Origin: Escherichia phage JLBYU32
Direction: 5' to 3' (one strand)
DNA: 64,000 nt
Sequence record: OK272490.1
The notes beneath the pieces were generated by a model, which was given only the letters and a program-made list of their open reading frames with translations, was not told where the DNA came from and ran no database searches. Shown here piece by piece: positions 20,477 through 30,688 of the stretch (positions are counted from its first letter, which is position 1; each line of letters starts with the position of its first letter). The position numbers were made by a program, and so were the translations under genes.

Positions 20477-21067
20477 TTAAGCTTTGGTCTTAAGTAGGTT
20501 CTTAAGTTTTTTAAGATTCATACTCTCATCAAACTTAAAACCAAATCCATTGACATAATCAATGAACTCGGATTTCTTACTAAGTGACAATGCGTAACTC
20601 ATATCAAAGTTCTTACTTGTTTCTGCGTCTGGACTAGAGTTCACATCAAATGAAATTTCTGTAGGCTCTTGCTTACTTTTTCTCATATTATCAATTAACA
20701 AACATGTATAGTTTGCTGGATAGAAGTTTACACTACCATCAACGTAGCTGTACTTATTATTGTGGATAAGGTTGGAAAAGACCTTAAGGAATGTTTCTGA
20801 GTCGTGGCAAACAAGTTTGAATTGGCTGCTCTCTCCAAGCGCAACTAATGAATACGGACTTTCACTATCAAAGTCATAATTTGGATTAGATGCCGTCACT
20901 GTTACACGCATCAAGTTATTAGCAATAGTCTTCTGTTTAAAAGAATTTTGAACATAGTGAAGACCTCTATCACACTGATTGACTAGCTCTTTAAGTAGGT
21001 CATTTGCATATGGTGAATTAATTGATACAGAGCCATCACTATTGTAATTAAAACTTACTGTTAACAT
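20477..21067 (-). CDS. hypothetical protein
   Basis: ORF. Confidence 0.5.
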   Translation of the reverse strand: MLTVSFNYNSDGSVSINSPYANDLLKELVNQCDRGLHYVQNSFKQKTIANNLMRVTVTASNPNYDFDSESPYSLVALGESSQFKLVCHDSETFLKVFSNLIHNNKYSYVDGSVNFYPANYTCLLIDNMRKSKQEPTEISFDVNSSPDAETSKNFDMSYALSLSKKSEFIDYVNGFGFKFDESMNLKKLKNLLKTKA

Positions 21068-21294
21068 TTTTCAGTTCTCCTGCGATTTATAATTTTGCTG
21101 CAATAGAGAAACGAAGTAAACTCACTGGAAGAAACCACTAAGTGTTGTTCACTAGATTGAGCCATTGCCCTGAAATACATTCCAGTCAAAGCATCATAGT
21201 GACTATTCTTTCCAATTGAGGTTATATAGCCATGACTCTTTGCAGTTTGATATAAATCTATAATATCTGCGATTTCTAATTGGGAACTACACAT
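21061..21294 (-). CDS. hypothetical protein
   Basis: ORF. Confidence 0.4.
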   Translation of the reverse strand: MCSSQLEIADIIDLYQTAKSHGYITSIGKNSHYDALTGMYFRAMAQSSEQHLVVSSSEFTSFLYCSKIINRRRTEKC

Positions 21295-21458
21295 AGATAA
21301 TCCTCTTGTCTTCTGTAATTTTGAAAGAACAGGTACAGACCAATTTCAGAGGATGAATAGTAGAGTAACTCTACCCTTTTTGATTCCTTACAGTGATTGG
21401 TATTTTTACCTTTCTTCGGGTTGTTTGATTTTCTCATTAAGTCTCCTTTGTAGAACAA
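21276..21458 (-). CDS. hypothetical small basic protein
   Basis: ORF; first gene of - strand block. Confidence 0.35.
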   Translation of the reverse strand: MFYKGDLMRKSNNPKKGKNTNHCKESKRVELLYYSSSEIGLYLFFQNYRRQEDYLCVVPN

Positions 21459-21536
21459 GGCAGACCTACAGCTTTAAGTAAGATGGTACAGTAATCCATA
21501 CAACAAGTCAAGAACTATTGCAAGTTAAAAAAGTTG

Positions 21537-21577
21537 TTGACAAAGTACTTGACAAGGTGTAGGCTTCTAAATACTTA
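21537..21577 (+). promoter_or_regulatory. candidate tandem promoters (two TTGACA boxes) in divergent intergenic region
   Basis: TTGACA at 21537 and 21549; -10 candidates weak. Confidence 0.3.
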
Positions 21578-21686
21578 GAAGATAACTTAAAAGGTTCCTC
21601 TAAAAAGGCTATTTAAACAGATATCTTTCTGGATATCTATCTTTTATCTTAAAAGCCTTTTAAGAGGTCTTATAAGAGGCATACCA

Positions 21687-22058
21687 ATGAAAAACAGAAC
21701 AAACAAAGGCCAGTTTAAAAAAGGCCAGTCTGGAAACCCATCTGGAAGACCTAAAGGCTCTCGTAACAAAAGTTCACTCGTAAAAGCTCAACTGACCATT
21801 GATAATTCTGCTGAGTTTGCTGCAAAGTTGTTTGAAGCGATTGTTACAAGGGATGCTGCTAAGCTTGCAGAGTTCGGTTTGACGACTGACGATGTAAACC
21901 TGAAGTCGATGATGGAAGCTGGTAAAACTATCATGACCCACTCAGCAGGTGAGATGAAAGCGATTGCAGCAGACACTAAGAAGACCCCTGATAATGGTGG
22001 TCAAACCCAGACAGATAACAAACCAACGTTTTCTGCTGTAGCGACTCTCAAAAAATAA
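21687..22058 (+). CDS. hypothetical protein with N-terminal AT-hook-like GNPSGRPKG motif
   Basis: KGQSGNPSGRPKGSRNK basic motif. Confidence 0.5.
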   Translation: MKNRTNKGQFKKGQSGNPSGRPKGSRNKSSLVKAQLTIDNSAEFAAKLFEAIVTRDAAKLAEFGLTTDDVNLKSMMEAGKTIMTHSAGEMKAIAADTKKTPDNGGQTQTDNKPTFSAVATLKK

Positions 22059-22138
22059 TTTTAAAAGGTGTTGACAGACTCTACAAAGTTGCTCTAAAGT
22101 CTGTCACATCAAACAACAATGAGAGAAGAGAGTAAAAT

Positions 22139-23554
22139 ATGAGCGAGTTATTTAAACATGCGCACCTTCATGCAGGTCGAACTGAAAATGGTGCTGTAAA
22201 CCATACTTCATCAATGTCTTCTCTGGTAGACTTTTACAAAGCCGCTGGCTCAAGCCGTAGTAATGTAGAAATCTTACCAGACCTGTTCTACAAAGCTTTG
22301 CGTGAGGATGTTGATGTTGCAGTTCGTATTTTGCTTCATATGCGAGATGTACGAGAAGGTATGGGTGAGCGTAAAGCTTTCCGAACTGTTTTACTTCAAG
22401 CGATTGAAGATAAAGTTTTAGAGCCTACGCAGGTTCTTCGCATTATGGGTAAGATTGCAGAACTTGGTCGTTTTGATGACTTCAAAATCTTCGCAGGTAC
22501 TCGTTTTGAGACAGATGCCTTCAAACATTTAGAAGCAGCATTACTAGACCCTGCAACAGCAGGTTTAGCAGCTAAGTGGTTGCCACGAGTAAAACCACGC
22601 CACAAACAGTTTGTAAAACGTTTCTGCAAGTTTGCAAACTTAAGTGAGAAGGAGTATCGCACACTGTTGTCTGCACTGTCTGATACGGTTGAGCAAAAAA
22701 TCTCTGCTAATGAGTTTGGTAAGATTGACTACAGCAAGATTCCTTCACTCGCTGCTGCACGTTACCAAAAACTCTTTAACCGTAAAGATGGGGAACGTTA
22801 CAAAGCTTACATTGAGTCCCTCTCAAAAGGTGAGGCTAAGATTAACGCTGGCGCTGTTTACCCATACGATGTGATTAAATCTATCAAGTATGGTAATGCA
22901 GATGTTGCTAATGAGCAGTGGAAAGCACTACCAAACTGGATGGCAGAAGGTGAAAACATCCTGTGTATGACTGATGTTTCAAGCTCAATGTCTTGGGTGA
23001 ATCTTGGTTCAATCACTGCCCTTGATATTGGTGTATCACTTGCATTGTATGTAGCAGAACGCAATACAGGTTGCTTTAAAAATGAGTTAATGGTGTACTC
23101 AACAGACCCTCATTTCATCGAACTGAGTGGTGATTTACAGACTCGTATGCGTCAAGTAATGAGTCATGTTGAATATGGTTCAACTTACTTACAAGCAGCT
23201 TTTGACCGTATTCTTGAGATAGGTAAAAGAAACAACTTGACTCAGGAAGATATGCCAAGTAAGCTTATCATCTTCTCCGATATGGAGTTCAATCAGGTTG
23301 ATGGTGCTAACGGTCGTACAAACTTTGAAGCAATTCAGAGTAAGTACAAAAAAGCTGGATATGAGATGCCACAACTGGTATTCTGGTACTTAGCAAACCG
23401 TAATGGCACTTGCGAAGTATCTGTTAAGGATAACGGTGTAGCAATGGTATCTGGTTTCTCTCCAGCCACTTTAAAAGCTCTGCTTGGTGGTGAGAAGTTT
23501 GACCCAATCAGCGTAATGCTCAAAGCAGTAATGATTGACCGTTACATTTGGTAA
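22139..23554 (+). CDS. vWA-domain protein with MIDAS-like DxSxS motif (Ro60/TROVE- or DUF2828-like architecture)
   Basis: alpha-helical N-terminal half; CMTDVSSSMS MIDAS-like motif and FSDMEF in C-terminal half; 471 aa. Confidence 0.45.
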   Translation: MSELFKHAHLHAGRTENGAVNHTSSMSSLVDFYKAAGSSRSNVEILPDLFYKALREDVDVAVRILLHMRDVREGMGERKAFRTVLLQAIEDKVLEPTQVLRIMGKIAELGRFDDFKIFAGTRFETDAFKHLEAALLDPATAGLAAKWLPRVKPRHKQFVKRFCKFANLSEKEYRTLLSALSDTVEQKISANEFGKIDYSKIPSLAAARYQKLFNRKDGERYKAYIESLSKGEAKINAGAVYPYDVIKSIKYGNADVANEQWKALPNWMAEGENILCMTDVSSSMSWVNLGSITALDIGVSLALYVAERNTGCFKNELMVYSTDPHFIELSGDLQTRMRQVMSHVEYGSTYLQAAFDRILEIGKRNNLTQEDMPSKLIIFSDMEFNQVDGANGRTNFEAIQSKYKKAGYEMPQLVFWYLANRNGTCEVSVKDNGVAMVSGFSPATLKALLGGEKFDPISVMLKAVMIDRYIW

Positions 23555-23572
23555 AAAGTTTCAAAAAGGGTA

Positions 23573-23601
23573 TTGACAATATGTTTGATACCCTTTAATA
23601 T
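23573..23601 (+). promoter_or_regulatory. sigma70-like promoter TTGACA-17-TAATAT overlapped by palindrome GGGTATTGACAATA...ATACCC
   Basis: consensus boxes; inverted repeat spans the -35; upstream of tRNA cluster. Confidence 0.55.
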
Positions 23602-23663
23602 GTTCTACATAGAAACGAAATGAGAGCTTTTCTAAGATACTGAAAAATATTTTAAAAAAGTTC

Positions 23664-23692
23664 TTGACAATCACTAAAAAATAATGTTAAAG
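23664..23692 (+). promoter_or_regulatory. candidate promoter TTGACA with weak -10, just upstream of first tRNA
   Basis: TTGACA at 23664; -10 ambiguous. Confidence 0.3.
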
Positions 23693-23719
23693 TGGTTACA
23701 TAGAGTTTGAAAAGTTTAT

Positions 23720-23796
23720 CTCTGTTTAGCTCAGCTTGGTAGAGCGTTCCGTTTGGGGCGGTAAGGCCGGAGGTTCAAGTCCTCCAACAGAGACCA
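23720..23796 (+). tRNA. tRNA-Pro (anticodon TGG)
   Basis: hand-folded cloverleaf; 7-bp acceptor, T-arm GGAGG-TTCAAGT-CCTCC, CCA encoded. Confidence 0.7.
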
Positions 23797-23803
23797 AATT
23801 AAT

Positions 23804-23881
23804 GTTCCAGTAGACAAAACGGTAAAGTCACCACTCTTTCAAAGTGGATATTTGAGGGCTCAAATCCCTTCTGGAACGCCA
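23804..23881 (+). tRNA. tRNA-Glu (anticodon TTC), atypical T-loop CTCAAAT
   Basis: perfect acceptor and anticodon stems; loop CTTTCAA. Confidence 0.7.
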
Positions 23882-23883
23882 GT

Positions 23884-23963
23884 TTTGACAGAAGACCAAT
23901 TACAGCAAGTTTAATCTTATTCATCTGACACGAAATCGGACAAAGAAGAGATTTGGTCTGGTC
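23884..23963 (+). repeat. tRNA spacer element CAGAAGACC..ACAGCAA ... TTGGTCTGG (copy 1)
   Basis: long-range inverted repeat AGACC/GGTCT; recurs at least 4 times between tRNAs. Confidence 0.6.
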
Positions 23964-23972
23964 ATTAAGAAT

Positions 23973-24049
23973 TGCGGGTATAGAGAAAGGGCGTCTCACA
24001 TGTCTCATTAGCATGGTATCGGCAGGTTCGACTCCTGCACCCGCCTCCA
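23973..24049 (+). tRNA. tRNA-Met (anticodon CAT)
   Basis: anticodon loop CTCATTA; T-arm GCAGG-TTCGACT-CCTGC; 1-72 mismatch. Confidence 0.65.
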
Positions 24050-24050
24050 A

Positions 24051-24117
24051 TTTTGCAGAAGACCGTATGCAGCAATAAACTACTTTTTGCGGATAAAAGA
24101 AAAAACACGGTCTGGCA
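24051..24117 (+). repeat. tRNA spacer element (copy 2)
   Basis: TTTTGCAGAAGACCGTATGCAGCAA ... CACGGTCTGGC. Confidence 0.6.
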
Positions 24118-24126
24118 ATGTATTAA

Positions 24127-24203
24127 GGTTAGGAAGCACATAAGGTATGTGCGGTCGCCTGTTAAGCGAATGGCACAGGGTTCGAATCCCTGACTAACCG
24201 CCA
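24127..24203 (+). tRNA. tRNA-Asn (anticodon GTT)
   Basis: loop CTGTTAA; T-arm CAGGG-TTCGAAT-CCCTG. Confidence 0.75.
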
Positions 24204-24212
24204 AATTTAAAT

Positions 24213-24300
24213 GTGTCGTTATCCCGTAGATGGTAGCGGTGGGGACTGTAAATCCCTTGTCATTGAGACTCGGTAGGTTCGACTCCTACACGGCACACCA
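24213..24300 (+). tRNA. tRNA-Tyr (anticodon GTA), long variable arm
   Basis: 88 nt; loop CTGTAAA; T-arm GTAGG-TTCGACT-CCTAC. Confidence 0.7.
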
Positions 24301-24306
24301 AATAAA

Positions 24307-24384
24307 GGTTATGTAGTTTAATCTGGTTAAAATACTCCCCTGTCACGGGAGATGATGAGGGTTCAAATCCCTTCGTAACCGCCA
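24307..24384 (+). tRNA. tRNA-Asp (anticodon GTC)
   Basis: anticodon stem CTCCC/GGGAG, loop CTGTCAC. Confidence 0.75.
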
Positions 24385-24442
24385 ATTTTGAGAGGGCTAT
24401 TTAGCCCCTCCCTTAAAGAGTTCTTACGAGTATTCTTTAAAG

Positions 24443-24514
24443 GAGCAGAAGACCAAATACAGCAAATACGTATGATATTTTCAAGCCAATTTAATTTTGA
24501 AAAAATTTAAAACT
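24443..24514 (+). repeat. tRNA spacer element (copy 3)
   Basis: GCAGAAGACCAAATACAGCAA ... AACTTGGTCTGGC. Confidence 0.6.
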
Positions 24515-24520
24515 TGGTCT

Positions 24521-24668
24521 GGCTCAACAATTTTACAGAAGACCGTTTACAGCAAAACTTAAACAATCTATTTCTCGGTAAAGAAAAGGAGAAGGTTCGA
24601 TTCCTTCACTCGACAGATGTCGAGTTGGTGTAATGGTAGCACTTAAGATGATAAACAACGGTCTGGTA
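24521..24668 (+). repeat. tRNA spacer element (copy 4) containing a tRNA-like fragment
   Basis: TTTTACAGAAGACCGTTTACAGCAA ... AACGGTCTGG. Confidence 0.6.
24585..24640 (+). pseudogene. tRNA-like fragment: T-arm then acceptor-like hairpin then D-arm-like segment (degenerate or permuted tRNA?)
   Basis: GAAGG-TTCGATT-CCTTC then ACTCGAC-AGAT-GTCGAGT then TGGTGTAATGGTAGCAC; no canonical cloverleaf in normal order. Confidence 0.25.
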
Positions 24669-24817
24669 ATCATCTTTGCAGTAGCTTATGTGGCTAATTA
24701 TGTCGTCCCATGAGTGCCGATGAATTTCCTTAGCATGATTCTAGATTAGCTTAATAGGAAATGACTCTACAGACCCTTTAGCAAGGTCTGCGTAGGTTAC
24801 TGCAAAGATGATTTAAT

Positions 24818-24892
24818 GGAAGTGTAGCAGAATGGTGATGCGGCAGACTTTTAATCTGACAGGCGATGGGTTCGAATCCCTCCACTTCTACC
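24818..24892 (+). tRNA. tRNA-Lys (anticodon TTT)
   Basis: loop CTTTTAA; paralog of tRNA at 26051 (shared T-arm GATGGGTTCRAWTCCCTCC). Confidence 0.65.
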
Positions 24893-24897
24893 AAAAT

Positions 24898-24974
24898 GGT
24901 TCAGTCGCAGATAAGGTAATGCAGGGGTCTCATAAGCCCTATGAATGTGGGTTCGATTCCCATCTGAACCTCCA
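24898..24974 (+). tRNA. tRNA with anticodon CAT (Met, or Ile via lysidine)
   Basis: loop CTCATAA; perfect acceptor GGTTCAG/CTGAACC. Confidence 0.7.
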
Positions 24975-24976
24975 AT

Positions 24977-25051
24977 TGTGGGTTAGCATAAATGGTAATG
25001 CAAACGGCTGATAACCGTTAGAAGAGGGTTCGATACCCTCACCTACAACCA
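24977..25051 (+). tRNA. tRNA-Ile (anticodon GAT)
   Basis: anticodon stem AACGG/CCGTT, loop CTGATAA. Confidence 0.75.
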
Positions 25052-25066
25052 ATTTCAATAAAGTTG

Positions 25067-25095
25067 TTGACATTTAGATGTGACCACTTTATAGT
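25067..25095 (+). promoter_or_regulatory. sigma70-like promoter TTGACA-17-TATAGT inside tRNA cluster
   Basis: consensus boxes; followed by ~200 nt of structured non-tRNA sequence before next tRNA. Confidence 0.6.
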
Positions 25096-25299
25096 AACCT
25101 TAGTTTTCGTTGCGTAGCGTCTATTTTGCAAATTTAAAATAAATGCAAACGACAATGTTTTTCTGGCAGTAGCTTGATAGGCTAAACACCAGTGAGGTCT
25201 TCCAATCCCTCATCAAAGAATTTGGCGTACTAGCCCACGGTATGATTAATAAAGTGGGCATCTTTAAGGGCTTTCTAAGAGAGTCTTTAAAGATAATTA

Positions 25300-25381
25300 C
25301 GGGGCGTATCTCAGCTGTCTTCTAAACAGCCGTTAACCGAGTAAGTGGAGTATGCGGGTTCGAGTCCTGCCGCCTCGACCA
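25300..25381 (+). tRNA. atypical tRNA-like gene (possible anticodon TCT, Arg); fold uncertain
   Basis: good acceptor and T-arm (GCGGG-TTCGAGT-CCTGC) but non-canonical D region; hairpin GCTGT-CTTCTAA-ACAGC. Confidence 0.35.
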
Positions 25382-25524
25382 ATTTAGTTAGCAGATTACT
25401 TAGACGACCTAAGCGGGTCTTCCTGTAGGGAGGTGGTCTGTATCTCATGTTTTCCAGAACATGTAAATAATCTGAGAAGGGGCTTTACAGTGTTGAGATA
25501 ATACGGTAAGCTTCGAATTATAGT

Positions 25525-25606
25525 ATGGGACGATGTTAAGACTCTAAGGCATGAGCAACGGCTTCCAACACCGTTTCAAAGGGGTTCAACTCCTCCGTCC
25601 CATGCC
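25525..25606 (+). tRNA. atypical tRNA, possibly tRNA-Trp (anticodon CCA) with oversized D region
   Basis: perfect 7-bp acceptor ATGGGAC/GTCCCAT, T-loop TTCAACT; candidate anticodon loop TTCCAAC. Confidence 0.4.
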
Positions 25607-25620
25607 AAAGTCTTATTAGG

Positions 25621-25708
25621 GGTAGGTAGCGGCTAATGGTAGCCAAACTGTCTTGAAAACAGTTGCCACTGTAGAGATACGGTGAGGGTTCGACTCCTTT
25701 ACTTACCG
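25621..25708 (+). tRNA. tRNA-Ser (anticodon TGA), long variable arm
   Basis: 88 nt; anticodon stem ACTGT/ACAGT loop CTTGAAA; CCA not encoded. Confidence 0.7.
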
Positions 25709-25855
25709 CCTAATAAGATTTAAAGCCAAGCTTCATTCGGATGTTGCTTTGGTATACCGCGTGTATTGTTGTACACACAGATAAAACACCTAGTAGGTGT
25801 CACGGAGAAGAGATAATATCAAGCTCTCCAAAGGTTCTAGTCACCGGATTAAACA

Positions 25856-25880
25856 AGACTATGCAAAGACCTTTTTAGGT
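25856..25880 (+). terminator. hairpin + T-tract inside tRNA cluster spacer
   Basis: AAGACC-TTTTT-AGGTCTT followed by TTTTAGAG. Confidence 0.4.
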
Positions 25881-25966
25881 CTTTTTAGAGGGCTTCTAAG
25901 GTTATTAGTCGCTTGTTGTGGAACCTTGTTGCTCAGGTTCTTAGAAGTTCTCTAAAAAGATTTAAT

Positions 25967-26043
25967 GCACCTATAGCCCAACTGGTGGAGGCAGCAGACT
26001 TAGAATCTGCTCAGTGTGAGTTCGAATCTCTCTAGGTGTACCA
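25967..26043 (+). tRNA. tRNA with anticodon TAG (Leu by anticodon) but class I (short variable loop) shape
   Basis: anticodon stem GCAGA/TCTGC loop CTTAGAA; 77 nt; discriminator A. Confidence 0.6.
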
Positions 26044-26050
26044 AATTAAT

Positions 26051-26126
26051 GCAGGTGTAGCAAAATGGTTATGCGGCTGACTCTTAATCAGTAAGACGAT
26101 GGGTTCAATTCCCTCCACCTGTACCA
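26051..26126 (+). tRNA. tRNA-Lys (anticodon CTT)
   Basis: loop CTCTTAA; paralog of tRNA-Lys(TTT) at 24818. Confidence 0.65.
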
Positions 26127-26132
26127 AACATT

Positions 26133-26208
26133 GGGGTCATAGTTTATATGGTTAAAATTCGAGTTTTGCAAACTTGGGAACTGAGTTCAATTCTCAGTGA
26201 CTCCACCA
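26133..26208 (+). tRNA. tRNA-Ala (anticodon TGC)
   Basis: G3:U70 wobble pair in acceptor stem; loop TTTGCAA; T-arm CTGAG-TTCAATT-CTCAG. Confidence 0.8.
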
Positions 26209-26214
26209 ATTAGT

Positions 26215-26289
26215 GCATCCATAGTTTAAACGGGAAAATTACAGTCTTCCAAACTGAGGTTGAGGGTTCGATTCCCTCTGGATGCTCCA
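26215..26289 (+). tRNA. tRNA-Gly (anticodon TCC)
   Basis: perfect acceptor GCATCCA/TGGATGC; loop CTTCCAA. Confidence 0.75.
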
Positions 26290-26296
26290 AATTAAT

Positions 26297-26372
26297 GCTC
26301 CTATCGTATAATTGGCTATTACGGTTGCCTTGTAAGCAACTTATCAGGGTTCGAATCCTTGTGGGAGCACCA
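26297..26372 (+). tRNA. tRNA-Thr (anticodon TGT)
   Basis: anticodon stem GTTGC/GCAAC loop CTTGTAA. Confidence 0.8.
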
Positions 26373-26467
26373 ATTCAGAGGTCAAGTGAAAGACCGCTTT
26401 GAGTCAACTGAAGACCGTAACAAATTCCACGGAGTTGAGTTAGCGGCACAACTCCAGACCTCTTTCA

Positions 26468-26543
26468 TACTCGCTTAGTTTATATGGTAAAACATCACCC
26501 TTACAAGATGAAGAAAAAGGTTCAAGTCCTTTAGTGAGTACCA
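26468..26543 (+). tRNA. tRNA-Val (anticodon TAC)
   Basis: T-arm AAAGG-TTCAAGT-CCTTT; loop CTTACAA. Confidence 0.65.
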
Positions 26544-26544
26544 T

Positions 26545-26622
26545 GTTCCAGTATCCCAATTGGCAGAGGATGCAAGCTCAAACCTTGTACTAGTGACGGT
26601 TCGAATCCGTCTTGGAACACCA
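26545..26622 (+). tRNA. tRNA with anticodon CAA (Leu by anticodon), class I shape
   Basis: T-arm GACGG-TTCGAAT-CCGTC; loop CTCAAAC; discriminator A. Confidence 0.6.
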
Positions 26623-26627
26623 ATTTT

Positions 26628-26703
26628 GCAGGATTAGTTCAAATGGAAAGAGCAACAGTCTACGAAGCTGTTAATAGGGGTTCGAATCCCTTATCCTGCG
26701 CCA
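26628..26703 (+). tRNA. tRNA-Arg (anticodon ACG)
   Basis: perfect acceptor GCAGGAT/ATCCTGC; loop CTACGAA. Confidence 0.8.
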
Positions 26704-26722
26704 ATTTAAAGAGGCTATTTAG

Positions 26723-27280
26723 ATGAGATATTTGAAGTATGCTTCATGGATTTTCTTAGCTTTGTTAGAGCCATTTGCAGCAATCTTAGCAGTTATCTTA
26801 GCACCTTTTGTAGTTCCATTCTACAGTGAGAAGAAAGGACACTTACCTTTCGGGTTCAGATGGATGGAGACATATGACAACCCAATTGATGGTGATGAAG
26901 GTCACGTTAAAAGATGGGCTAATATTAGATGGATTGGTAAACTAGGTGTCTACATGCAAAGAGTCGGATGGCTCTGGAGAAACAAAGCTTATAACTTCTC
27001 TTACCATGTATTAGGAAGAGATGTAAAAGATGTTACTAAGTGGAAAGGTAATATCAACGTAAGTTCTGACCCCGAAGATAATCAGACAGGTTATCTCCTA
27101 ATGTGGAACAGTAATGCTTGGGGATTATTCGCTTTTATCCCATCAATTAAAATCTTTGGTAAACAATTTTACTGGAGAATTTATATTGGATGGAAACTAA
27201 AAAGTGTTGTCCCAGAAGAAAGAGCATTCTCAAGGGAAAGAGTTATGTTGGCATTCTTTATTCATCCACTGAGAAAGTAA
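26723..27280 (+). CDS. hypothetical membrane-anchored, Trp-rich protein embedded in tRNA cluster
   Basis: AAAGAGG RBS 8 nt upstream of ATG; N-terminal hydrophobic segment. Confidence 0.55.
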   Translation: MRYLKYASWIFLALLEPFAAILAVILAPFVVPFYSEKKGHLPFGFRWMETYDNPIDGDEGHVKRWANIRWIGKLGVYMQRVGWLWRNKAYNFSYHVLGRDVKDVTKWKGNINVSSDPEDNQTGYLLMWNSNAWGLFAFIPSIKIFGKQFYWRIYIGWKLKSVVPEERAFSRERVMLAFFIHPLRK

Positions 27281-27288
27281 AGATTTAA

Positions 27289-27364
27289 AGGGGATTAGTT
27301 TACAAGGTTAAAACCTCGGTCTTTGAAATCGAAGAAGTTGGTTCAATTCCAACATCCCCCGCCA
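27289..27364 (+). tRNA. tRNA-Gln (anticodon TTG)
   Basis: T-arm GTTGG-TTCAATT-CCAAC; loop CTTTGAA. Confidence 0.7.
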
Positions 27365-27366
27365 AT

Positions 27367-27445
27367 GCTCCATTACTCCAATTGGCAGAGAGGCCAGACT
27401 TAAAATCTGTGTTATGTATCGGTTCGAATCCGATATGGAGTACCA
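27367..27445 (+). tRNA. tRNA with anticodon TAA (Leu by anticodon), class I-like shape
   Basis: T-arm ATCGG-TTCGAAT-CCGAT; loop CTTAAAA; discriminator A. Confidence 0.6.
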
Positions 27446-27450
27446 AATTT

Positions 27451-27526
27451 AGCGGTATAGCATAACTGGCAATGCAGCAGCCTCTGAAGCTGTCCTATTA
27501 AGGTTCAAATCCTTATGCCGCTGCCA
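27451..27526 (+). tRNA. tRNA-Gln (anticodon CTG)
   Basis: T-arm TAAGG-TTCAAAT-CCTTA; loop CTCTGAA. Confidence 0.65.
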
Positions 27527-27557
27527 CTTCTAAGGATTCTTGCGAGAGTCCTTAAAT

Positions 27558-27633
27558 GTGGCCTTATCATAAATGGTAATGACCCATGCTGTGAACATGG
27601 TCTATACGGGTTCAAATCCCGTAGGTCACCCCA
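27558..27633 (+). tRNA. tRNA-His (anticodon GTG)
   Basis: anticodon stem CCATG/CATGG loop CTGTGAA; discriminator C. Confidence 0.75.
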
Positions 27634-27639
27634 ATTTAT

Positions 27640-27715
27640 AGTCCAAGTAGCTTATATGGTTAAAGCGCGTGTCTGAAAAACATGAGAAGAGGGTTCGAAT
27701 CCCACTGGACTACCA
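27640..27715 (+). tRNA. tRNA-Phe (anticodon GAA)
   Basis: loop CTGAAAA; T-loop TTCGAAT; acceptor pairing slightly ambiguous. Confidence 0.65.
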
Positions 27716-27731
27716 ATTTCAAAGGTGCTTA

Positions 27732-28466
27732 ATGAAAGAGATGACAGAACAAGGTAAGGAGATTTTTAATCTCTTAAAAACCGGTAGAGGGTTTTCTAAT
27801 CCCCTTATTACTGGTGCAGCAGTTCTCGGTGGAACCGTAGCTGCCTCTACATCACTTGTAAGTTCTATTAGCTCTGTAACAGACCCTACAATGAAGGAGA
27901 AACTTGTTGCTGCTGGACTTACAACAGTCCTTCTAAACAGCTTTACAACAAGCCTTACAAGCACTACAGCGACTACTAAGACCTTAACAGACTATGGTCA
28001 AAAGTCTATTGATGAGTTTTCATCACGTATGCAGGTAGCAAAGGGGTATTCCAATGTTATGGGTGCAGCAGGGGAACAAGTTGGCTGTACACCGTTTAGT
28101 GGTATTATGGGCGTTGCTACAGAATATGGTCAAAAAGCTATTGACACAATTAACAGTGCACTAGATGACGTTAATGATGTATTAAGTGACTTACAAGATG
28201 CTATTGATAAGGGTCTTGATACTGTTTCTGATTTAGCTAATCAGGCTGTTAGCAAGATTAATGAAGGTATCTCGAAGATTACAGCTTATGCAGATGAAGT
28301 TGTGCAGATGATTGAAGAAGAAGCTGCCCTTATTGCAGAGTACCTTAAAACGAATATCAATGGGTTCTTAGCAGGTATCTTACCAGACTGGTTTGATGAT
28401 GCCTGTAAAACTGGTGTAATTGATACTATTGCAACACCAGAAATGAAGAGCGCATTACAGAAGTAA
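27732..28466 (+). CDS. hypothetical Ser/Thr/Ala-rich protein embedded in tRNA cluster
   Basis: start moved to ATG 27732 (track start 27669 is an alternative start inside tRNA-Phe); ends 1 nt before tRNA-Ser. Confidence 0.5.
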   Translation: MKEMTEQGKEIFNLLKTGRGFSNPLITGAAVLGGTVAASTSLVSSISSVTDPTMKEKLVAAGLTTVLLNSFTTSLTSTTATTKTLTDYGQKSIDEFSSRMQVAKGYSNVMGAAGEQVGCTPFSGIMGVATEYGQKAIDTINSALDDVNDVLSDLQDAIDKGLDTVSDLANQAVSKINEGISKITAYADEVVQMIEEEAALIAEYLKTNINGFLAGILPDWFDDACKTGVIDTIATPEMKSALQK

Positions 28467-28467
28467 T

Positions 28468-28560
28468 GGAAGATTAACCCTAAAAGGTAAGGGAGCAGTT
28501 TGCTAAACTGCCAGTAGCTGAGAAATCGGTGTACCAGTTCAAGTCTGGTATCTTCCTCCA
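28468..28560 (+). tRNA. tRNA-Ser (anticodon GCT), long variable arm
   Basis: 93 nt; perfect acceptor GGAAGAT/ATCTTCC; anticodon stem GCAGT/ACTGC loop TTGCTAA. Confidence 0.75.
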
Positions 28561-28564
28561 ATTT

Positions 28565-28640
28565 GAATCCGTGACAGAAATGGCTATGTGCCTGTCTGCA
28601 AAACAGGTTTATAAGGGTTCGAGTCCCTTCGGATTCTCCA
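28565..28640 (+). tRNA. tRNA-Cys (anticodon GCA)
   Basis: perfect acceptor GAATCCG/CGGATTC; anticodon stem CCTGT/ACAGG loop CTGCAAA. Confidence 0.8.
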
Positions 28641-28679
28641 AGTTATTTTACTCTCTCTCTCAATTAAAATAATAATAAT

Positions 28680-28740
28680 GCCCTGCTATAAGTATTCTTC
28701 CTTTCGCTACCGAAGAGTATTTTTAGACAGGGCTTTTTTA
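28680..28740 (+). terminator. long hairpin + T-tract terminator after tRNA cluster
   Basis: GCCCTG ... CAGGGC with internal complementarity followed by TTTTTT. Confidence 0.6.
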
Positions 28741-28804
28741 CAGAGCTATACTTTATAAGAAGACTTATACAGTATGTCTCTGACGTACATTGTGGTTTCT
28801 CCTT

Positions 28805-28830
28805 GACGGTCTCTGTGCCGTCTTTTTTAA
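28805..28830 (+). terminator. hairpin + T-tract
   Basis: GACGG-TCTCTGTG-CCGTC followed by TTTTTT. Confidence 0.5.
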
Positions 28831-28864
28831 GGGGAAACATGGTTAATTATTTGGAGAAAACATA

Positions 28865-29065
28865 ATGAGCGAGACCGTTTATAAAGAACTTTATGAAGCT
28901 AACAAGAAGCTAGAATTTATGCAGAATACTATCATGGCAATTGCAGACAGATTATCTGTAGCAACAGGCATTGATATTAAAGAAGCATCTATGGATGCAC
29001 TTCTTGATGCTGTTGATGCAAAGTTCGAAGTTAAGAAAGAAGAGACTGCTACAGACTCTGAATAA
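28865..29065 (+). CDS. hypothetical small acidic protein upstream of terminase
   Basis: GGAG RBS; first gene of late + strand module. Confidence 0.5.
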   Translation: MSETVYKELYEANKKLEFMQNTIMAIADRLSVATGIDIKEASMDALLDAVDAKFEVKKEETATDSE

Positions 29066-29086
29066 TTCTATTTGCGGAGGTGCTTA

Positions 29087-30688
29087 ATGGACTTAAATGC
29101 TGTTAAGCAGAAGCGAGTGGAAGATGTTAGGAAAGTCCTAGCTGGAGAGTTGGGGCTTTCTGATGAAGTAAAAGAAATTATCAAATCATTCGGTAAAGAC
29201 CCCTCTAAATTCCTTCCAACTCAAATTCTGACTTTATTAAGATACACACCAGACCAAGTTAGACTTATCTTCAAATTGATGACTGATAAGAACTATGTAG
29301 CCCCTCAGCCGGGTTCTCAAGAGGTCTTTTTAAATACTAATGCTGACTTGGTTCTCTATGGTGGTGCTGCGGGTGCTGGTAAAACTGCTGCATTGTTAAT
29401 GGACTCTTTAAGGTTTATTGAAGACCCTAACTATAATGCTGTATATTTCCGTCGAAATACAACACAGTTACAAGGTGGTTTATGGCCTGCTGCAAAGAAA
29501 CTATTTGGTAAGTTTGGTGGGGTTCCTCACGAGCAGAAGATGACTATCACATTCCCTTCTGGGGCAACTATCAAGTTTACCTATCTAGAACTTGAAAAGC
29601 ACGCTGAAGGTCATCAGGGTATTGAATACTCAGCTATTTACTTTGACGAAGGTACACACTTCTCTGCTTCACAGATTTCATACCTACAGACTCGTCTACG
29701 TTCTGGGGCTGAAGGTGATTCATACATGAAGATTTCTATGAACCCAGACAGAGACCACTTTATTTACGATTGGGTAGAACCATTCTTAGATGAAGAAGGC
29801 TACCCAGACCCTGAAAAGTGTGGTCGTATTCGTTGGTATGTAATGAATGATGGTGTTATGGTTTCTGATTGGGAGAGAGACAAGATTCTTGAAATGTTTC
29901 CTCTTGAGATTCCTCAAACATATACATTCATCTCTGGTACGATTGATGATAACCCAATCCTTGACTTCTTAGAGCCTAAGTACCGTGGTAAGTTGGAAAA
30001 CAACACCCCTGTAAACGTTGCAAGACTTCGTTTCGGTAACTGGAAGGCTCGTGCAGAAGGTTCAAACTATTGGCAAAGACAATGGTGTGAGATTGTTGAT
30101 TCACTCCCAGAAGATGTATTCGATGTTAGAGCATGGGACTTAGCAGCAACTTTACCATCTGAGATTAACCCTAATCCAGACTGGACAGCAGGTGTTAAGA
30201 TGGGTAAATCTAAAAAAGACGGTTGCTATTATATCATTGATGTAGTAAGATTTAGAGATAGACCCTCTGGAGTCGAAACACAAATTAATTTGACTGCTGA
30301 AAGTGACGGTAAGCGAACTGGTATTTTTATCCCTCAAGACCCAGGCGCTGCTGGTAAATCCTACGCAACATCCCTCATCAGGAAACTTGCCGAGAAAGGT
30401 TATCGAGCAAGAGCTAAACCAACAAATAAAGATAAAGTTACCCGCTTTGCGGGATTTTCTGCTGCTTCTGAAGCTGGACTTGTAAAAGTCTTGAGAGGTA
30501 GTTGGAATGAAGCTTACTTTCAAGAGCTTGAAGGCTTTTGTGGTGATGGCAAAACTAAAGATGACCAAGTGGATGCTACCAGTGATGCTTTCAACAGTCT
30601 TAACGAAGTTAAATTATTCAAGCCACCATCAATGGGTGCTCACACAGATTTAGTGAGAGGAAACCCGTATGAGGGGCTTAGACGTTGA
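29087..30688 (+). CDS. terL: terminase large subunit
   Basis: Walker A LVLYGGAAGAGKTAAL; start moved to ATG 29087 after GGAGG RBS (track start 29072 is TTG); ~533 aa. Confidence 0.8.
   Translation: MDLNAVKQKRVEDVRKVLAGELGLSDEVKEIIKSFGKDPSKFLPTQILTLLRYTPDQVRLIFKLMTDKNYVAPQPGSQEVFLNTNADLVLYGGAAGAGKTAALLMDSLRFIEDPNYNAVYFRRNTTQLQGGLWPAAKKLFGKFGGVPHEQKMTITFPSGATIKFTYLELEKHAEGHQGIEYSAIYFDEGTHFSASQISYLQTRLRSGAEGDSYMKISMNPDRDHFIYDWVEPFLDEEGYPDPEKCGRIRWYVMNDGVMVSDWERDKILEMFPLEIPQTYTFISGTIDDNPILDFLEPKYRGKLENNTPVNVARLRFGNWKARAEGSNYWQRQWCEIVDSLPEDVFDVRAWDLAATLPSEINPNPDWTAGVKMGKSKKDGCYYIIDVVRFRDRPSGVETQINLTAESDGKRTGIFIPQDPGAAGKSYATSLIRKLAEKGYRARAKPTNKDKVTRFAGFSAASEAGLVKVLRGSWNEAYFQELEGFCGDGKTKDDQVDATSDAFNSLNEVKLFKPPSMGAHTDLVRGNPYEGLRR

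Follow-up and report, generated by a model that had tools for sequence, protein, structure and literature searches.

The stretch of DNA analysed here, hereafter the window, comprises 64,000 nucleotides (nt) of Escherichia phage JLBYU32 (sequence record OK272490.1) and contains an array of transfer RNA (tRNA) genes that is interrupted by two protein-coding open reading frames (ORFs), which we call ORF1 and ORF2. The window is from a Felixounavirus and shares ~98% DNA identity with published Felix O1/wV8-like coliphages; the 3.2 kb around both ORFs match over 200 published genomes of Felix O1-like phages (LMP34, KhF3, wV8, VpaE1 and others) at 96-99% identity. ARAGORN called 25 tRNA genes between 23720 and 28640, all of them on the + strand. 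The two ORFs and their immediate surroundings are arranged as follows.

26628..26703, + strand: tRNA-Arg(acg), called by ARAGORN, directly 5' of ORF1 and ending 19 nt before its start codon
26708..26714, + strand: Shine-Dalgarno-like AAAGAGG, read from the sequence, 8 nt 5' of the ORF1 ATG
26723..27280, + strand: ORF1, ATG start, 185 amino acids (aa), DUF7338 / phrog_2143, between tRNA-Arg(acg) and tRNA-Gln(ttg)
27289..27715, + strand: block of five tRNAs between ORF1 and ORF2, namely Gln(ttg), Leu(taa), Gln(ctg), His(gtg) and Phe(gaa)
27721..27727, + strand: Shine-Dalgarno-like AAAGGTG, read from the sequence, 4 nt 5' of the ORF2 ATG
27732..28466, + strand: ORF2, ATG start, 244 aa, TAA stop at 28464-28466, DUF7217 / phrog_2114, between tRNA-Phe and tRNA-Ser(gct)
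28468..28640, + strand: tRNA-Ser(gct) and tRNA-Cys(gca), 3' of ORF2

ORF1 ends 8 nt before tRNA-Gln(ttg) begins at 27289, ORF2 starts 16 nt after tRNA-Phe ends at 27715, and base 28467 alone separates the ORF2 stop codon from tRNA-Ser(gct). The original prediction had described a Trp-rich ORF1 with an N-terminal hydrophobic helix and a Ser/Thr/Ala-rich ORF2 that ends 1 nt before tRNA-Ser, and both descriptions, coordinates included, proved exact. A longer frame of ORF2 that starts with GTG at 27669 would overlap tRNA-Phe and is unconserved among orthologues; we rejected this start because all orthologues begin at the MKEMTEQ methionine.

Both ORFs are members of conserved protein families. ORF1 matches the Pfam family DUF7338 (PF24027) with 208 bits against a cut-off of 27 (1e-61; residues 1-184 on profile positions 1-176 of 180) and phrog_2143 at 6e-80, and ORF2 matches DUF7217 (PF23854) with 299 bits against a cut-off of 29 (4e-89; residues 8-243 on positions 2-238 of 238) and phrog_2114 at 2e-111. 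Orthologues of both number in the hundreds, and the 90%-identity clusters that hold the exact sequences have 1081 (ORF1) and 1308 (ORF2) members. Against Ounavirinae orthologues, the ratio of nonsynonymous to synonymous substitution rates (dN/dS) is 0.04-0.08 for ORF1 and 0.08-0.11 for ORF2. AlphaFold2 models, for which family alignments served as input, have a mean predicted local distance difference test score (pLDDT) of 94.8 and 95.3, respectively. Given the ARAGORN array, the Pfam scores, the dN/dS values and the orthologues, the claim that two real genes interrupt the tRNA cluster held up: ORF1 and ORF2 are genuine, conserved and under strong purifying selection.

The two genes are also already known. 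Their equivalents are ORF48 and ORF49 of Felix O1, genes 53 and 54 of wV8, ORF46 and ORF47 of VpaE1, and genes 153 and 159 of Bas63, and both have previously been catalogued as proteins without assigned function. An earlier description of the pair as uncharacterised passengers was therefore half right. Uncharacterised they are, as members of two DUF families for which a literature search under the names DUF7338 and DUF7217 found no papers; orphan passengers they are not, being annotated in hundreds of genomes and covered by reverse transcription PCR (RT-PCR) and knockout data. Searches of Pfam, PHROGs, NCBIfam and PADLOC found no functionally named domain in either ORF, and PDB sequence and profile searches with both proteins returned noise or coiled-coil matches only. 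Domains of tRNA processing or repair (RNA ligase, kinase/phosphatase, nucleotidyltransferase, RNA-binding) were likewise absent by Pfam, NCBIfam, PHROGs, and PDB sequence and fold searches.

ORF1 is a basic protein (isoelectric point (pI) 9.85) with 11 Trp (5.9%) and one hydrophobic segment at residues 9-27 (Kyte-Doolittle 2.38; AlphaFold helix 2-33). Its model consists of an N-terminal transmembrane (TM) helix followed by a basic, Trp-rich, globular alpha/beta domain. A search of this model against solved structures gave no match, the T4 holin domain included, and Foldseek against viral models returned unnamed family members only; as modelled, the DUF7338 fold is apparently new. The charges that flank the helix favour an N-in/C-out orientation in distant members and are ambiguous in the window protein. 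We also considered ORF1 as an i-spanin and rejected this, because its domain is globular alpha/beta and not a coiled coil.

We surveyed the genomic contexts of DUF7338 in 78 viral loci, with the proteins grouped into 17 clusters at 75% identity, and found that two contexts recur: tRNA genes, and lysis or tail-fibre modules. Clusters 0-5 hold the relatives whose identity to ORF1 is 55% or more; in all of their loci except one (L039), the DUF7338 gene follows a tRNA on the same strand at a distance of 17-1100 nt, and it frequently has tRNAs on both flanks. The backbones of these clusters are Felixounavirus and another Ounavirinae-like contig, Avunavirus Av-05, and T4-like phages, the last including 170-183 kb genomes with 18-19 tRNAs; the DUF7338 gene lies between genes 31 and 30 in RB16/RB43-like Pseudotevenvirus, and between 57B/trna.x and e.8 in Tevenvirinae. 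Cluster 9 is made up of unrelated short contigs with family-A polymerase and Dam methylase as neighbours, and in three of its four loci (L062, L063 and L071) a tRNA-Met or tRNA-Arg ends 17-267 nt before the DUF7338 ORF. The identity of the flanking tRNA varies among loci. No protein-coding neighbour is common to the Ounavirinae/Av-05, T4-like and cluster 9 loci except one 76-aa ORF family, found in T4-like phages and Av-05, and the widely common neighbours are restricted to the T4-like clusters, so that proximity to tRNAs alone recurs in every one of the tRNA-linked groups. When ~5% of a genome is assumed to be tRNA-adjacent, the binomial probability that at least 4 of 12 lineages are so placed (p = 0.05) is ~2e-3, a figure that is only rough because the independence of the lineages is uncertain.

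The other ten of the 17 clusters have no tRNA within 6 kb, save one in L060 that lies 2.3 kb off on the opposite strand, and in four of these ten, representing four distant lineages (7, 8, 13 and 15), DUF7338 adjoins an endolysin. A GH19-type endolysin ends 63-95 nt 5' of DUF7338 in 11 of 11 loci of a ~250 kb jumbo-phage lineage, and an Amidase_2 endolysin begins 12-13 nt 3' of it in three of the four loci of another lineage (L074, L079 and L085). The gene order in L060 is tail fibre, DUF4376 fibre-assembly protein, DUF7338, an 89-aa ORF with one TM helix, and a Phage_lysozyme of the signal-anchor-release (SAR) type (8.8e-43) located 246 nt downstream of DUF7338; L082 and L083 have a Phage_lysozyme of the same family ~800 nt downstream. 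Tail-fibre or fibre-assembly genes lie immediately 5' of DUF7338 in L060, L084 and L066, and within ~500 nt 5' of it in L082. Three of the lysis cassettes (L074, L060 and L056) each encode a further small protein, with one or two hydrophobic helices, that is a more conventional holin candidate than DUF7338.

Within the Ounavirinae, a presence/absence comparison of relatives set the two genes apart: ORF1 is missing in Mooglevirus, and ORF2 is kept in all Ounavirinae examined. A Mooglevirus-like locus (L104, 5469-5630) has the same tRNA order, with tRNA-Gln within 10 nt of tRNA-Arg and no ORF1, which indicates that ORF1 is variable by insertion or deletion in the Ounavirinae and dispensable to the array.

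As a separate observation on the region 5' of ORF1, about half of the Felixounavirus loci carry an insertion of ~237 bp between tRNA-Arg and ORF1 (in wV8, for example, at L016 5744-6000). This insertion contains an 80-aa ORF on the + strand (MQTLTVVEHENCES...), with its own Shine-Dalgarno-like motif and an ATGA stop/start overlap with ORF1; the wV8 annotation has a minus-strand ORF there instead. The window is without the insertion, and the corresponding site is 26704-26722.

ORF2 contains 11.1% Thr, 10.2% Ala and 8.6% Ser (30% together), and has a pI of 4.39 and a predicted mass of 25.7 kDa. Its AlphaFold2 model is an all-helical bundle of long helices, and conservation is seen at an N-P motif near residue 23 and at C119, C225, G133 and E197. 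An Ala/Thr/Ser-rich stretch at residues 25-43 is weakly hydrophobic and lies within the bundle in the model; it is probably the source of a 'membrane protein' label. The fold matches generic helical bundles only, designed helical proteins scoring highest, and an exhaustive HMMER search through 1.84 billion representatives yielded no more than 24 relatives, all of ~220-270 aa. In 26 of the 28 Ounavirinae loci examined, a spacer of 1-3 nt separates the ORF2 stop codon from tRNA-Ser. Erwinia Ounavirinae have the gene 3' of their last tRNA, ahead of two small ORFs and the gene for the large terminase subunit (TerL). Homologues in the Ackermannviridae, 26-29% identical, lie between the capsid region and the tail-completion gene, where DUF7217 adjoins a YAcAr/SLOG-domain gene and a DUF7424 lipoprotein gene; no tRNAs were annotated or called near DUF7217 in the Ackermannviridae loci examined. 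A further relative lies among the DNA-metabolism genes of a 116 kb phage. With neighbourhoods so varied, ORF2 has neither a consistent context nor a tRNA link.

Two database entries touch on the same gene pair. In L121 (5542-6729), L122 (1001-2188) and L116 (5992-6720), DUF7217 lies directly 3' of the YAcAr/SLOG gene and back-to-back with the DUF7424 lipoprotein gene. PHROG 289 ('GTP-binding domain', 500 positions) matches ORF2 over the C-terminal half only, and looks like a merge of adjacent YAcAr/SLOG and DUF7217 genes; the 90% cluster of a Kuttervirus protein likewise mixes YAcAr/SLOG and DUF7217 sequence kinds.

Expression and knockout data have been published for orthologues of both genes. 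By RT-PCR of Felix O1, ORFs 45, 46, 48 and 49 are maximal 5 min post infection, ORF52 (TerL) peaks at 25 min, and ORF51 and ORF53 peak at 60 min (PMC3185647 Table 3). ORF48 and ORF49 therefore behave like the early tRNA region, and unlike the adjoining late packaging genes. In the PhageMaP knockout data for Bas63, gene 153 scored +0.89, +0.84 and +1.85 on S17 and +0.81, +0.78 and +0.75 on MG1655, and gene 159 scored +0.28, -0.07 and +0.71 on S17 and -0.14, -0.09 and +0.41 on MG1655 (10.1101/2024.10.10.617714, supplement 3), which for gene 159 is nearer neutral than for a typical non-essential gene. Scores for the capsid, portal and terminase genes are about -2 to -4 on MG1655 and BW25113, and less negative on S17 (10.1101/2024.10.10.617714). 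Set against these essential genes, the scores indicate that Bas63 153 and 159 are dispensable on S17 and MG1655. The PhageMaP table also contains the labels 'holin*' and 'membrane protein*', in which the asterisk denotes manual assignment after BLASTp (10.1101/2024.10.10.617714); these labels rest on BLASTp and are without experimental basis.

The early timing of both genes raises the question of how they are transcribed. The following promoter-like and terminator-like sites surround them.

23565-23596, + strand: terminator-like site upstream of the array
23664..23693, + strand: promoter-like TTGACA, 18 nt, TAAAGT, with TG, just 5' of the first tRNA; candidate early promoter of the array
25067..25095, + strand: promoter-like TTGACA, 17 nt, TATAGT, 11/12, in the gap after tRNA-Ile; candidate internal promoter 5' of both ORFs
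28772-28788, + strand: weaker hairpin with a T-poor tail, from the terminator scan
28805..28828, + strand: terminator-like hairpin GACGGTCTCTGTGCCGTC followed by TTTTTT, 3' of the last tRNA; candidate end of the tRNA/ORF unit

The 19 and 16 nt spacers 5' of ORF1 and ORF2 leave no room for a promoter, and the scan found no + strand terminator-like sites between 23596 and 28772. Because of the spacer sizes, the lack of an internal terminator and the RT-PCR timing in Felix O1, the simplest model is probably that one or two early transcripts carry the tRNAs together with both ORFs and are cut by RNase P and 3' trimming. In such a model, the host polymerase would transcribe ORF1 and ORF2 early on a long tRNA transcript, RNase P would cut at the 5' terminus of the tRNA that follows, and the tRNA that precedes would be completed by 3' trimming. 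The mRNAs that this would free would have 5' ends of 19 and 16 nt, each with a ribosome-binding site, and 3' ends of 8 and 1 nt. A ribosome that terminates on ORF2 would cover the 5' strand of the tRNA-Ser acceptor stem, and we speculate that translation and processing may therefore compete.

Taken as a whole, the explanation that we favour, with confidence somewhat above even, is that ORF1 and ORF2 are genuine, immobile accessory genes that are co-transcribed with the tRNAs and released by processing, ORF1 acting in the sphere of lysis or the envelope and ORF2 being an early binding bundle. ORF1, judged by its sequence features and those of its relatives, is most likely a membrane protein with an accessory role in lysis or the envelope, for example an antiholin-like regulator or a superinfection-exclusion-type factor, and is probably neither the main holin nor a tRNA factor. 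This assignment is drawn from the single-pass membrane layout, the adjacency of relatives to lysis genes beside a separate holin-like ORF, early transcription, the neutral knockout, and the presence of relatives in T4-like phages that have their own holin. The N-terminal helix would insert in the inner membrane, the basic Trp-rich domain would probably be periplasmic, and the protein would either partner or regulate the holin-endolysin system in an antiholin-like manner or act in superinfection exclusion. Its place next to tRNAs would reflect shared early expression and repeated horizontal exchange in a plastic tRNA region. ORF2, on the evidence of its model, is probably an early, acidic, non-enzymatic protein that binds a host or phage partner: a soluble helical bundle, made early and dispensable in the laboratory, that would work through this binding.

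Several points weigh against these assignments. In the window, ORF1 adjoins no lysis gene. Its relatives in lysis cassettes are only 30-37% identical to it and may differ in function, and at this distance we infer the lysis link and do not count it as observed. The topology of enterobacterial DUF7338 proteins is ambiguous, because their helix is flanked by positive charges on either side and the pI of the domain is 9.9. The knockout is neutral in Bas63 (10.1101/2024.10.10.617714), so a role in lysis could only be a subtle or conditional one. A holin would not usually be expressed early, whereas in an antiholin or an exclusion protein such timing is not out of the ordinary. As for transcription, the promoter scan returned 18 sites where shuffles predict 18.4; it shows no enrichment and has no statistical power, so we infer co-transcription only. 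The published labels of the Felix O1 orthologue of ORF2 and of one Ackermannviridae homologue as structural proteins, considered below, also count on this side.

We weighed two other explanations of ORF1. One is that it is a phage holin, as the records of HMD-P8, ESCO50 and Citrobacter phage HP1 label it. ORF1 does have the TM helix (at least one, in a small protein) that is expected of a holin, and its layout, in which a large C-terminal domain follows the single TM helix, is reminiscent of class III holins, T4 gpT among them. DUF7338 adjoins endolysins in four distant lineages, and the Felix O1 genome paper found no holin-lysin cassette (PMC3185647). However, the label has no experiment behind it and in the PhageMaP tables was given by hand after BLASTp, and ORF1 is flanked by tRNAs alone in the window, endolysin adjacency being confined to those distant lineages. 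A holin is needed for lysis and expressed late, whereas the knockout of Bas63 153 is neutral or positive on two hosts (10.1101/2024.10.10.617714) and ORF48 peaks at 5 min (PMC3185647); Bas63 gene 29, also labelled 'holin*', scores about -1.2 to -1.7 on MG1655/BW25113. T4-like phages with ORF1 relatives also have their own holin t, the fold is unlike any solved protein, the T4 holin domain among them, and the separate small holin-like ORFs in L074, L060 and L056 suggest that ORF1 is an accessory rather than the holin itself. We consider it unlikely that ORF1 is the holin. The other explanation is that ORF1 acts on or with the phage tRNAs, in repair, maturation or protection from anticodon nucleases, and hence travels with their genes. 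In its favour, the linkage holds in all but one locus of clusters 0-5, spans the Ounavirinae, Avunavirus Av-05, at least two genome positions in T4-likes and three of four loci of an unrelated group, and involves the sole context that recurs in all of these groups (the rough binomial value of ~2e-3 belongs here). Against this stand a single-pass membrane protein without a recognisable RNA-binding or nucleotidyl-transfer fold, ten of 17 clusters without a same-strand tRNA within 6 kb, several of them in lysis or tail-fibre modules, and a Mooglevirus array that is intact without ORF1. In addition, the tRNA regions of T4-like genomes are known to be plastic and to accumulate accessory genes, and homing endonucleases cut and co-convert flanking DNA in tRNA regions. 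The linkage of ORF1 to tRNAs is genuine, and in our view it is better accounted for by early expression in common and by plastic tRNA regions than by a shared function; a tRNA factor seems quite improbable. The original prediction had raised a link to tRNA function for both genes; this found no backing beyond genomic linkage, which concerns ORF1 only, as distant ORF1 relatives lie in tRNA-free lysis cassettes and ORF2 relatives outside the Ounavirinae are not near tRNAs.

For ORF2, the competing explanation is that it is a virion protein, structural or injected, whose gene heads the module for packaging and morphogenesis. 'Gp49' is counted among the structural proteins in the Felix O1 paper on the basis of a 51 kDa gel band (PMC3185647), a Kuttervirus GenBank record names the homologue, located between capsid and tail-completion genes, 'structural protein', the gene order in Erwinia Ounavirinae is last tRNA, ORF2, TerL, and there are weak PHROG matches to tape-measure proteins. 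The 51 kDa band, however, compares with a predicted 25.7 kDa for ORF2 and fits the 48.9 kDa sheath protein gp63; the authors themselves suspected the sheath for this band from 'synteny and mass' (PMC3185647), and ORF49 is missing from their 17-protein shotgun list, which holds gp63 (PMC3185647). Because of the mass discrepancy and this shotgun list, the 'Gp49' claim is most likely a numbering slip that was carried into the abstract's list of structural proteins. Table S1 of VpaE1 calls ORF47 a 'hypothetical protein' and the portal homologue ORF51 a 'putative structural protein', a label that appears to denote detection by mass spectrometry; the cryo-electron microscopy paper on Bas63 makes no mention of gp159 (nor of gp153), and there is no matching PDB chain. 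The gene is also transcribed early and non-essential. We found no sound evidence for either ORF1 or ORF2 as a virion protein, and regard this role for ORF2 as very unlikely. A different suggestion, that one or both proteins are counter-defence factors needed only on hosts with a particular defence system, fits two early, small, dispensable accessory genes, an ORF2 that is very acidic and non-enzymatic like many inhibitor proteins, an Ackermannviridae homologue that adjoins a gene with a YAcAr/SLOG nucleotide-binding domain, and a neighbouring Ro60-like gene (Bas63 gp130) that counters a defence system (10.1101/2024.10.10.617714). Neither protein resembles known defence or anti-defence families, though: PADLOC profiles for defence and counter-defence gave no match to ORF1 and, for ORF2, only coiled-coil-type ZorA-tail matches (E 5e-4 or weaker, ~17 bits). 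The main text of the Bas63 screen of 33 defence systems (10.1101/2024.10.10.617714) mentions genes 153 and 159 neither as counters or triggers nor otherwise, so in that part of the paper they are not validated or discussed hits. ORF2 is moreover near-core across the Ounavirinae, which is unusual for an arms-race gene, and has a low dN/dS. Evasion of defences, which had been proposed for both genes, is thus without positive evidence in PADLOC and in that main text, and a counter-defence role seems improbable to us. Finally, the ORFs might be selfish mobile genes aimed at tRNA genes, such as homing endonucleases of a degenerate or novel kind. The location invites this idea, and the expectation that such sites often house homing endonucleases in other phages was borne out, since Felix O1 has three HNH ORFs in its array and wV8 has one; ORF1 is also variably present among the Ounavirinae. 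Even so, profile searches confirmed the absence of HNH and GIY-YIG motifs: no HNH, GIY-YIG, LAGLIDADG or other endonuclease domain was found in either ORF (Pfam, PHROGs, NCBIfam; E up to 1). The models show an alpha/beta domain anchored in the membrane (ORF1) and a bundle of helices (ORF2), and both genes keep a fixed position under strong purifying selection. This last idea is effectively refuted.

The array, ORF1 and ORF2 are flanked on one side by a DUF5681 gene (21687-22058) followed by the Ro60-like gene (22139-23554; DUF2828/DUF7788), and on the other by a 66-aa ORF, the large terminase gene (29072-30688; ATG ~29087) and a portal gene. The Bas63 orthologue of the DUF5681 gene, gene 129, is strongly essential in PhageMaP, with scores of -3.1 to -3.5 on MG1655 and -0.9 to -1.5 on S17 (10.1101/2024.10.10.617714). 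The DUF5681 gene may encode the 'missing' small terminase subunit (TerS) that the Felix O1 paper did not locate (PMC3185647), and if it does, the array separates TerS from TerL. We also considered ORF2 itself as TerS, which is unlikely because its gene is non-essential and the upstream DUF5681 gene is an essential candidate.

An Rfam scan of 21000-29200 found only tRNAs in or around both ORFs, and no Y RNA-like match near the Ro60-like gene. Some of the ARAGORN calls, tRNA-Met (23973-24049), tRNA-Tyr (24213-24300) and tRNA-Ser(tga) (25621-25710), are doubtful by Rfam: with its tRNA model they were unreported at E up to 1, or were weak tRNA-Sec matches (29.6, 39 bits). The Felix O1 authors marked the Tyr and His genes as pseudo-tRNAs, and gave the Met gene a low Cove score. 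A gap of 570 bp in the array (25051-25621) has no ORF of at least 60 aa, and contains the best promoter-like site of the region (25067-25095) as well as sub-threshold tRNA-like and tmRNA-like Rfam matches at 24991-25177, 25109-25298 and 25299-25378. The matching place is occupied by tRNA-Arg(tct) in Bas63 and by an HNH gene in Felix O1, and the window may carry a degenerate tRNA remnant here.

A bolder version of our reading, which we find rather doubtful but worth stating, is that DUF7338 is an unrecognised class of single-pass lysis-control proteins (holin partner or antiholin) of unsolved fold that was repeatedly captured in the tRNA clusters of large enterobacterial myophages, with its synthesis tied to the early tRNA operon and RNase P. 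If this were true, termination on ORF2, 1 nt from tRNA-Ser, would compete with the maturation of that tRNA. For Salmonella and E. coli, Felix O1-like phages are widely used in typing, biocontrol and therapy. How they control lysis is poorly defined, and ~70% of their genes are without assigned function (PMC4690856). Placing DUF7338 in the lysis or envelope sphere would, if correct, give a testable hypothesis for a family in hundreds of therapeutic-candidate phages, and its occurrence beside tRNAs in unrelated backbones is a small, clean case of tRNA clusters as landing or expression platforms for accessory genes. The new points are modest, namely the recurrent adjacency of DUF7338 and tRNAs across phage families, its alternative home in lysis cassettes and an apparently new fold, and they bring no major change to current understanding. 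Both genes had been catalogued before, and neither is needed under laboratory conditions.

The closest known counterparts of ORF1 and ORF2 are their orthologues, Felix O1 ORF48/ORF49 and Bas63 153/159, which match them in array position, length (185 and 244 aa) and protein sequence (94-98% identity). Felix O1 has HNH genes in its array and the window has none, with otherwise no material difference; wV8-type genomes have the extra 80-aa ORF 5' of ORF1 that is missing in the window. T4 segB and the Felix O1 HNH ORFs 44, 45 and 47 resemble ORF1 and ORF2 in occupying gaps between tRNA genes. Unlike these, ORF1 and ORF2 are without a nuclease domain, keep a conserved, fixed position and evolve under purifying selection. 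Apolipophorin III, IncA, the coiled-coil (CC) domains of Rx/NRG1 and the MLKL four-helix bundle are 5-15% identical to ORF2, a similarity that amounts to 'helical bundle' only, with no shared function shown. Mixed tRNA-mRNA transcripts have precedents in the E. coli thrU-tyrU-glyT-thrT-tufB operon and in the mitochondrial 'tRNA punctuation' model. As in these systems, the coding segments of the window have tRNAs on the same strand as immediate neighbours, too close for a promoter or terminator of their own; in the window, unlike in these systems, processing is predicted, and the 1-nt 3' tail after the ORF2 stop codon would be unusually short. For ORF1, the nearest functional parallels would be the T4 antiholin RI and T4 gpT. 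It has no sequence or structural similarity to either, adjoins no lysis gene in the window, and its binding to a holin is putative. Nevertheless, it shares with them one N-terminal membrane helix and a globular C-terminal domain, and it is early and dispensable like T4 rI, with relatives that lie inside lysis cassettes. Its modelled architecture is compatible with an RI-like layout, in which an N-terminal membrane or SAR anchor holds a periplasmic, holin-binding domain.

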